From the IMG/VR virus record IMGVR_UViG_3300001688_000696: DNA of 64,000 nucleotides. The stretch is one strand, 5' to 3'. Positions 18,811-19,411 of this stretch are shown here, in pieces. The translations under genes were made by a program, and so were the position numbers. Below the pieces are notes generated by a model that was not told the DNA's origin, did no database searches, and worked only from the letters and a program-made list of their open reading frames with translations. Numbering within the stretch: the first letter of the stretch is position 1; each line of letters begins with the position of its first letter. The stretch comes from a virus (Duplodnaviria; Heunggongvirae; Uroviricota; Caudoviricetes).

Positions 18811-19411
18811 ATGGCTAAAGATATGAAGGTTTCCGGTCTGGAAAGACTGATGGCCAAATCGGTGATTGGCGAAATTGAGCGCTACCGCAGAGAAAACGAA
18901 AACATCCCCGTTTCCTCAGTCCACATCGAACTTGCGCCATGTGAGAGCTTTCAACAGGTTTTCATCCCCGACAAAAACAGCCAGTTTTCTTCACGGGTGG
19001 ATTTTCCGGGTTGGGAAAGAGTCATGCGGGGGGGATGATGACCAGTACGCCGAGCTAACTGACGGCAGTCTGGTGATGATAGAACCGGCAGCAGGCTGGA
19101 AAAACCCGATGATGGACTGGTTCGTAGATGCAATCTACGGGCAGGCGGAAAGGTTGCTGAACGCTAGCGGAGGTCGGCTTTTGAATGTGGTCTTTGCGCC
19201 CGTAGACGAATCAGCAAAAAATTGGAGCGTACTCAACATCGTTGGGGAAAAGGGCGGGGTAGGGCGGTGGCAATTCGCCAGCGTGAATATTTTTGACGCA
19301 GCAGAAATGACCGAAAATGACCTGTGCTTGGCTGATAATGTGTCAGATGAAGACTTTCCGCTCGAGGAAACAGGCAACATCCTGTCTATCATCGATGAAT
19401 TGGGCTGGTGA
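18811..19411 (+). pseudogene. gene split by +1/-1 frame change at a G7 tract (19028-19034): ORF A 18811..19038 + ORF B frame to 19411
   Basis: ORF A (RBS aaagga, MAKDMKVSGLERL...PGWERVMRGG*) stops just after G7. Frame 2 continues from G7 as GGDDDQYAELTDGSLVMIEPAAGW... to 19411. Deleting one G gives a continuous ~200-aa protein. Confidence 0.5.

Follow-up and report, generated by a model that had tools for sequence, protein, structure and literature searches.

The gene at the poly-G tract

In this work, we analyzed a run of seven G residues (GGGGGGG) at positions 19028-19034, on the plus strand, of the window, by which we mean the whole 64,000-nucleotide stretch of DNA under analysis. As read from the window sequence, the run falls on codons 73-75 in a gene about 200 codons long and separates two reading frames. 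The features of the locus are the following:

18800-18804, plus strand: Shine-Dalgarno-like AAGGA, 6 nt 5' of ATG 18811, read from the sequence
18811-19038, plus strand: N-terminal part in frame 0, 75 codons, ending in ERVMRGG; codon usage best in its own frame
19028-19034, plus strand: poly-G tract, G7 in the window and G8, G9 or G10 in a sister clade
19034-19411, plus strand: C-terminal part in the +1 frame, 125 codons, running from DDDQYAELTDG to IIDELGW; pI 4.05

Frame 0 is closed by TGA 19036-19038, with a second TGA immediately 3' of the first, and the +1 frame entered from the tract, with the translation GGDDDQYAELTDGSLVMIEPAAGWKNP... / GGDDDQYAELTDG..., stays open until the stop at 19409-19411. 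The position of the tract and the frames around it (ORF A at 18811-19038 and a +1 frame open to 19411) are as an earlier note on this DNA had described them, and its prediction that removal of one G would restore an ORF of about 200 aa was borne out in silico, where a single ORF of 199 aa was obtained. The only tract lengths that join both halves are multiples of three, that is, G9, or G6. The start codon is probably ATG 18811, which was picked by several gene callers (P0002, P0014, P0015), and the longer TTG and MNDF starts reported by some pipelines are probably over-extensions. Under standard decoding, the 75-aa N-terminal fragment would be the only product expected from the G7 form; inspection of the sequence revealed no convincing ribosome-binding site or own start codon for the C-terminal part close to the tract.

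The codon-usage score was 0.27 bits/codon for 18811-19033 and 0.35 bits/codon for 19034-19408, each segment scoring best in its own frame; as references, chunks of the other window genes gave 0.26 ± 0.10 when read in frame and -0.34 ± 0.16 when read off frame. The downstream frame is protein-like, as the earlier note had also held. In the +1 frame, codon usage is coding-like from the tract onwards, which argues against the presence of two separate genes (or a functional split gene) made up of ORF A and an ORF B initiated internally at ATG 19076 or 19109, even though an ORF B of 100-111 aa has been called from ATG 19076, 19109 or 19112 (P0003, P0007, P0011) and the split state is the common state in public data. 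Since, in addition, no Shine-Dalgarno-like sequence was seen at a suitable distance from the ORF B ATGs and a near-identical strain with nine G residues (P0012/L002) has a single uninterrupted ORF, we regard such an arrangement as highly improbable. The same uninterrupted ORF supports the view, already put forward in the earlier note, that one gene is interrupted at the tract.

Runs of at least seven G or C residues are not enriched in the window, with 3 observed versus 6.5 ± 2.3 expected from first-order Markov simulations; the tract is therefore notable for its placement at the junction of two coding frames and not for its occurrence. When 211 homopolymer runs were tested, a 1-nt indel extended an open frame by at least 60 codons at four places. 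One of the three places other than the poly-G tract was assessed and proved to be an overlap on a complete methyltransferase gene, and coding support on both sides was shown at the poly-G tract only. As homopolymer frame fusions are this few, the window assembly does not appear to be noisy with homopolymer frameshifts.

The full-length protein has a very narrow distribution. Among 5.8 billion proteins, the fused sequence falls into a single 90%-identity cluster, whose 17 members are fragments or variants of the same gene from many public assemblies, and no homologs beyond copies about 99% identical were found either among the word-indexed 5.8 billion proteins or by a full HMMER search of 1.84 billion representatives. 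The sole extra HMMER hit (P0016), a 2473-aa Ig-repeat protein matched over a stretch of 23 residues, was judged spurious. Searches of Pfam, PHROGs, NCBIfam, PADLOC and the PDB sequences yielded no family match to the protein, and a single-sequence AlphaFold2 model was unusable (pLDDT 34.5). The full protein is acidic (pI 4.3) and not hydrophobic, and would appear to be cytoplasmic.

Neighbourhood of the gene and the element that carries it

The poly-G gene is flanked by a divergent methyltransferase gene at 17551-18573, akin to the DNA-phosphorothioation (dnd)-associated family (TIGR04096, 146 bits versus a cut-off of 150), and by a metallophosphoesterase gene at 19481-20071. The poly-G gene and the divergent methyltransferase gene are 237 nt apart, and their spacer contains a perfect 10-bp hairpin at 18701-18727, AAAAAGGCGG-AGATAAA-CCGCCTTTTT, shaped like a bidirectional terminator. 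For the phosphoesterase, the closest homolog outside the cluster is 47% identical and lies in an unrelated chromosomal context without synteny, and a neighbouring protein of 1439 aa has no relative in GTDB or IMG/VR. Orphan DNA methyltransferase genes are unusually dense here, with at least four N6/N4 (N6_N4_Mtase) matches in the window. Methyltransferase genes were located, among others, at the following positions:

14734-15597: methyltransferase gene
17551-18573: methyltransferase gene, the dnd-associated-like neighbour of the poly-G gene
55861-56700: methyltransferase gene
about 59062-59931: methyltransferase gene

A second split gene, considered at the overlapping ORFs 55569-56186 and 55861-56700, was rejected, the latter ORF being a complete methyltransferase.

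The window also has 10 tRNA genes in two arrays (21502-22062 and 25682-25986), among them two for Phe, all four Ser isoacceptors and four for Glu. Upstream of the window, 15 more tRNA genes were found (L025 2993-5236), including Gly-CCC, Gly-GCC and Gly-UCC, which gives at least 25 within about 35 kb. The same upstream region (L025/L026 1-9900) encodes a T4 Rnl1-like RNA ligase, an ADP-ribosylglycohydrolase, a dual-specificity phosphatase and an ADP-ribosyl-exotoxin-like protein. The upstream genes and the tRNA arrays suggest a giant phage with putative tRNA-repair and host-modification functions.

Two further observations concern the gene content of this otherwise orphan-rich, phage-like region. 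First, a PAS-GGDEF diguanylate cyclase gene is present at 5363-7318 (GGDEF E = 4.5e-38). Second, ENA contig ERZ27245383 k141_34440 (L015 1320-3112) carries a TnpB (Cas12f1-like_TNB) segment in place of window 34847-36100, where an orphan ORF of 417 aa lies on the opposite strand in the window and in the Logan contigs; this difference has the appearance of an insertion-sequence-associated replacement polymorphism.

Most other proteins of the element gave no match, and related contigs reach 295-400 kb. A bacterial-type promoter and ribosome-binding site are present in its sequence. The exact 25-mer adjoining the tract had no match in IMG/VR, in the GTDB representative genomes or in the JGI metagenome collection, and distant blastn searches against phage records matched tRNA genes only. 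The element is most likely a giant phage, an identity that is inferred, as no structural gene was seen. One source sample could be traced, Ga0214976, which is a thermophilic acetate-fed biogas reactor (PMC7024554).

Tract length among close relatives

The tract was read directly from the DNA of 14 retrieved loci and the window, 15 loci in all that are less than 0.6% apart. Four lengths were found:

G7: window and L003-L012 (Logan assemblies of several SRA projects; ENA MEGAHIT and SPAdes assemblies; G7 samples include SRR25909810, SRR35946763 and that of ERZ27245383)
G8: L013 (JGI 3300021045; PRJNA525781)
G9: L002 (SRR23829991)
G10: L001 and L014 (SRR23829992 and SRR23829989)

The G7 loci comprise at least six haplotypes, up to 0.5% apart, and G7 is invariant in all of them. 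The product specific to G7 (P0002, MAKD...RGG*) was recovered from about 24-30 contig records of at least four projects and at least three assemblers (Logan, ENA MEGAHIT/SPAdes, JGI), and about 25 blocks of the contig collection have an index entry for it. In the G9 allele, a single continuous protein is encoded (P0012); its called length of 252 aa includes an over-extended start, and counting from MAKD gives 200 aa. In the G7 and G10 alleles, the stop is the TGA directly after the run, and in the G8 allele eight further codons (MMTSTPS) precede the stop. The G10 locus L001 and the G9 locus L002, from adjacent run accessions, show no difference other than the tract over 5402 aligned bases, with the caveat that tract lengths are assembly consensus values and that the G9 versus G10 difference between sister runs may in part be noise from calling a consensus over so long a G run. 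In a tree built on 26 variable sites, midpoint-rooted without an outgroup, a clade with G7 only stands apart from a clade with G8, G9 and G10. The intact (ON) allele is known from one assembly only, in the latter clade, and eight candidate in-frame products of the window's clade (G6/G9, two C-terminal variants, two starts) were absent from a collection of 15 billion proteins. Six substitutions were counted in the gene among the loci (2 synonymous and 4 non-synonymous), too few for dN/dS at a divergence below 0.5%.

Indel errors are commonest at homopolymers, and the earlier note had accordingly raised the possibility of a sequencing or assembly artefact. In that case, the true tract would be G6 or G9 and the gene intact. 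One tract call of the window, the G8 at 46259 described below, is perhaps doubtful in this respect, since all seven other assemblies have G7 at that site. At the tract itself, however, G7 was obtained in 11 independently retrieved DNA loci, the window and 10 more, from differing runs and assemblers, and no other convincing homopolymer-split gene was found in the window among the 211 runs tested, one of the three further candidate places having been assessed. As G7 is reproduced across runs, assemblers and haplotypes, we take it as the true sequence of the window's lineage and consider that error accounts for the split with only a minimal probability.

The allele series also bears on programmed recoding, by which the full-length protein would be made from G7 and G10 through +1 ribosomal frameshifting on GGG or through RNA polymerase slippage. 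Two features are shared with prfB-type +1 frameshifting and with transcriptional slippage sites: the 0-frame stop lies immediately 3' of the slippery run, and the remainder is encoded in the +1 frame. In favor of recoding, a +1 shift would restore the frame in G7 as well as in G10, the sequence would allow tRNA-Gly to re-pair perfectly from GGG 19030-19032 to GGG 19031-19033, and the element has its own tRNA-Gly(CCC) gene. Unlike in those systems, the required offset is not conserved, being +1 for G7 and G10, -1 (equivalently +2) for G8 and none for G9; GGA, the last sense codon before the stop, offers no +1 re-pairing; the RNA fold downstream of the tract is not significant (z = -1.58); and an Rfam search matched no element. 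The transcriptional slippage sites known in bacteria consist of about nine or more A or T residues, whereas the run is here a G7 of non-conserved length. Recoding is thus a very unlikely explanation for the arrangement of the two frames.

The poly-G tract is not the only length-variable repeat of the element. In the surrounding 6 kb, all other indels fall in simple repeats, at 17511, 20505, 21191 and 21256, which comprise or adjoin the following features:

17511-17517: T7, length-variable among assemblies, up to +3
20505-20510: C run, C6 in the window and C5 or C4 in other assemblies
20511-20539: near-consensus promoter (TTGCAT 20511-20516, 17 nt, TATAAT 20534-20539) upstream of an acidic orphan ORF at 20573-20941
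about 21191: poly-A run, length-variable among assemblies, +4 to +6
about 21256-21268: (AT)n repeat, length-variable among assemblies, +4 units

The C6 run adjoins the -35 box TTGCAT, and its length may modulate promoter strength. Further away, the G run at 46259-46266 is intergenic, between the divergent ORFs 45055-46206 (minus strand) and 46365-48089 (plus strand); it is G8 in the window versus G7 in 7/7 other assemblies covering the site, so that either the strains differ or the base call of the window is doubtful. As an internal control of stability, C7 at 41057-41063, inside ORF 40804-41616 (minus strand), was invariant in 11/11 assemblies, with the ORF intact. Upstream of the window, the ADP-ribosyl-toxin-like gene has G5 versus G6 (L025 about 6437 / L026 about 6404) together with a 33-bp indel (L026 6653-6685), and the gene calls are 104 + 432 aa for one strain versus 532 aa for the other; it is a second gene with its frame set by a G run.

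Probable slippage, possible phase variation and known systems

Altogether, the tract is real, it varies in length, one of its alleles leaves the gene intact, and both halves have the codon usage of coding sequence. The explanation that we favor, and consider reasonably probable, is that one small orphan gene has been split by a genuine frameshift at a slippage-prone poly-G run, the allele of the window being truncated (OFF). As the DNA is replicated, slipped-strand mispairing would alter the length of the run between close strains, and it is the probable cause of the length differences. G9 would then give the full-length protein, G7 and G10 products would end at the TGA after the run, and those of G8 eight codons further on. 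From the G7 of the window, only the 75-aa N-terminal fragment would be made, so that this allele would be a stable OFF allele, presumably a loss-of-function state, and the gene would be dispensable (accessory) for the element. A run of seven would be short enough to be fairly stable, and all loci of the window's clade have it; among the sister strains, the run would have grown to 8-10 G residues and be changing on the time-scale that separates sister samples. The slippage rate climbs steeply as a tract lengthens, and a G7-invariant clade beside a G8-G10 clade is the pattern expected from replication slippage with such a dependence on length.

It has to be considered whether selection also maintains the run because it turns an accessory gene ON and OFF, reversibly and at high frequency. 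The gene may be one for host interaction or anti-defence, the latter idea being suggested only by the acidity of the protein and by the methyltransferase genes nearby. Two features by which phase-variable genes are recognized are found at this locus: a G/C tract of at least seven lies inside a coding sequence, where a change of ±1 shifts the frame, and its length differs between close genomes with near-identical flanks. A third feature, typical of phase variation without defining it, is the over-representation of long G/C tracts, and these are not over-represented here. Phase variation would also entail reversible switching in a clonal population, at about 1e-5 or more per division. The suggestion of the earlier note that the tract is a phase-variation switch stood in part. 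Its variability was confirmed, with four tract alleles in genomes less than 0.5% apart and with contigs that are identical except for being ON or OFF (SRR23829989/-91/-92). Five observations speak against a switch: (i) G7 is fixed over at least six haplotypes and about 30 contig records of the window's clade, (ii) no in-frame allele is on record in that clade, (iii) the control tract, C7 at 41057, has the same length in 11 assemblies, (iv) long G/C runs are not enriched, and (v) the ON state is known from a single assembly. We therefore hold a selected switch to be possible and clearly less probable than slippage-made alleles of one gene, even with two points that speak for it in addition to the variability, namely that further G/C runs in the element vary too (the C run at 20505, the G run at 46259 and the G run of the ADP-ribosyltransferase-like gene) and that a phage precedent exists in the polyG-controlled genes of Campylobacter phages, as cited in PMC10877375.

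In Campylobacter, the cut-off for poly-G/C tracts is at least 7 (PhasomeIt), and the evidence for variability concerns all tracts of at least 8 in strain NCTC 11168 (PMC6321876). In Mycobacterium tuberculosis, a 7C tract in glpK drives reversible frameshifts (bioRxiv 10.1101/717272). Hypermutable polyG tracts are also described in the Campylobacter Fletchervirus phages (Sorensen et al. 2021, Cell Rep 35:109214, as cited in PMC10877375). As in the poly-G/C phase-variable genes hmbR and pgtA of Neisseria, the polyG genes of C. jejuni and glpK, a G/C run of at least seven lies inside the reading frame of the gene studied here, and its length differs between near-identical genomes and sets the frame (ON with G9; OFF with G7, G8 and G10). 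The G7 of the window matches both the length of the glpK 7C tract and the PhasomeIt cut-off. Unlike in those bacterial genes, the window's clade has G7 as a fixed length, and long G/C tracts show no enrichment in the genome; moreover, the carrier is an uncultivated phage-like element and not a host-adapted pathogen.

The likeness to Fletchervirus consists in the variation of intragenic poly-G length in a probable phage genome, which would result in sub-populations with and without the protein. In the Campylobacter phages studied by Sorensen and colleagues, the tracts reportedly lie in receptor-binding protein genes, and switching is said to have been demonstrated experimentally. The gene analyzed here differs in being an orphan gene beside methyltransferase genes, in an element whose phage identity is deduced. 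With homopolymer frameshift pseudogenes, it shares a 1-nt frame error fixed across a clade and a downstream half that cannot be read by standard decoding; unlike in such pseudogenes, neither stops nor indels have accumulated in the downstream half, which is still coding-like, and a sister clade has an intact allele at the same tract. In mechanism, the locus is best read as a classic case of frameshifting by slipped strands at a poly-G tract within a gene, of the kind already known in Neisseria, Campylobacter, M. tuberculosis and Campylobacter phages.

It is tempting to extend this to the element as a whole: in a giant phage, or a comparable extrachromosomal element, hosted by a thermophilic bacterium of digesters, several hypermutable G/C runs of the methyltransferase/tRNA region would act as stochastic switches of accessory genes. 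The candidate runs are those of the poly-G gene, the C run upstream of the promoter of ORF 20573-20941, the G run at 46259 and the G run of the ADP-ribosyltransferase-like gene. We consider this broader proposal doubtful. If it were true, phage polyG phase variation would extend past the Campylobacter phages to an unrelated, uncultivated lineage, and the orphan protein would be pointed to as a conditionally costly factor of host interaction or anti-defence. Likewise, mixed tract lengths within samples, if true, would place the locus among the few cases of polyG switching in phage outside the Campylobacter phages and would flag the orphan protein for functional testing.

Under the favored explanation, a single gene with slippage-made alleles, the annotation of the window should record a frameshifted (OFF) allele of one gene, neither two genes nor a "corrected" sequence. 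The case is then a modest one, in which strains of an uncharacterised giant phage-like element of anaerobic digesters would have or lack an accessory protein owing to homopolymer slippage.
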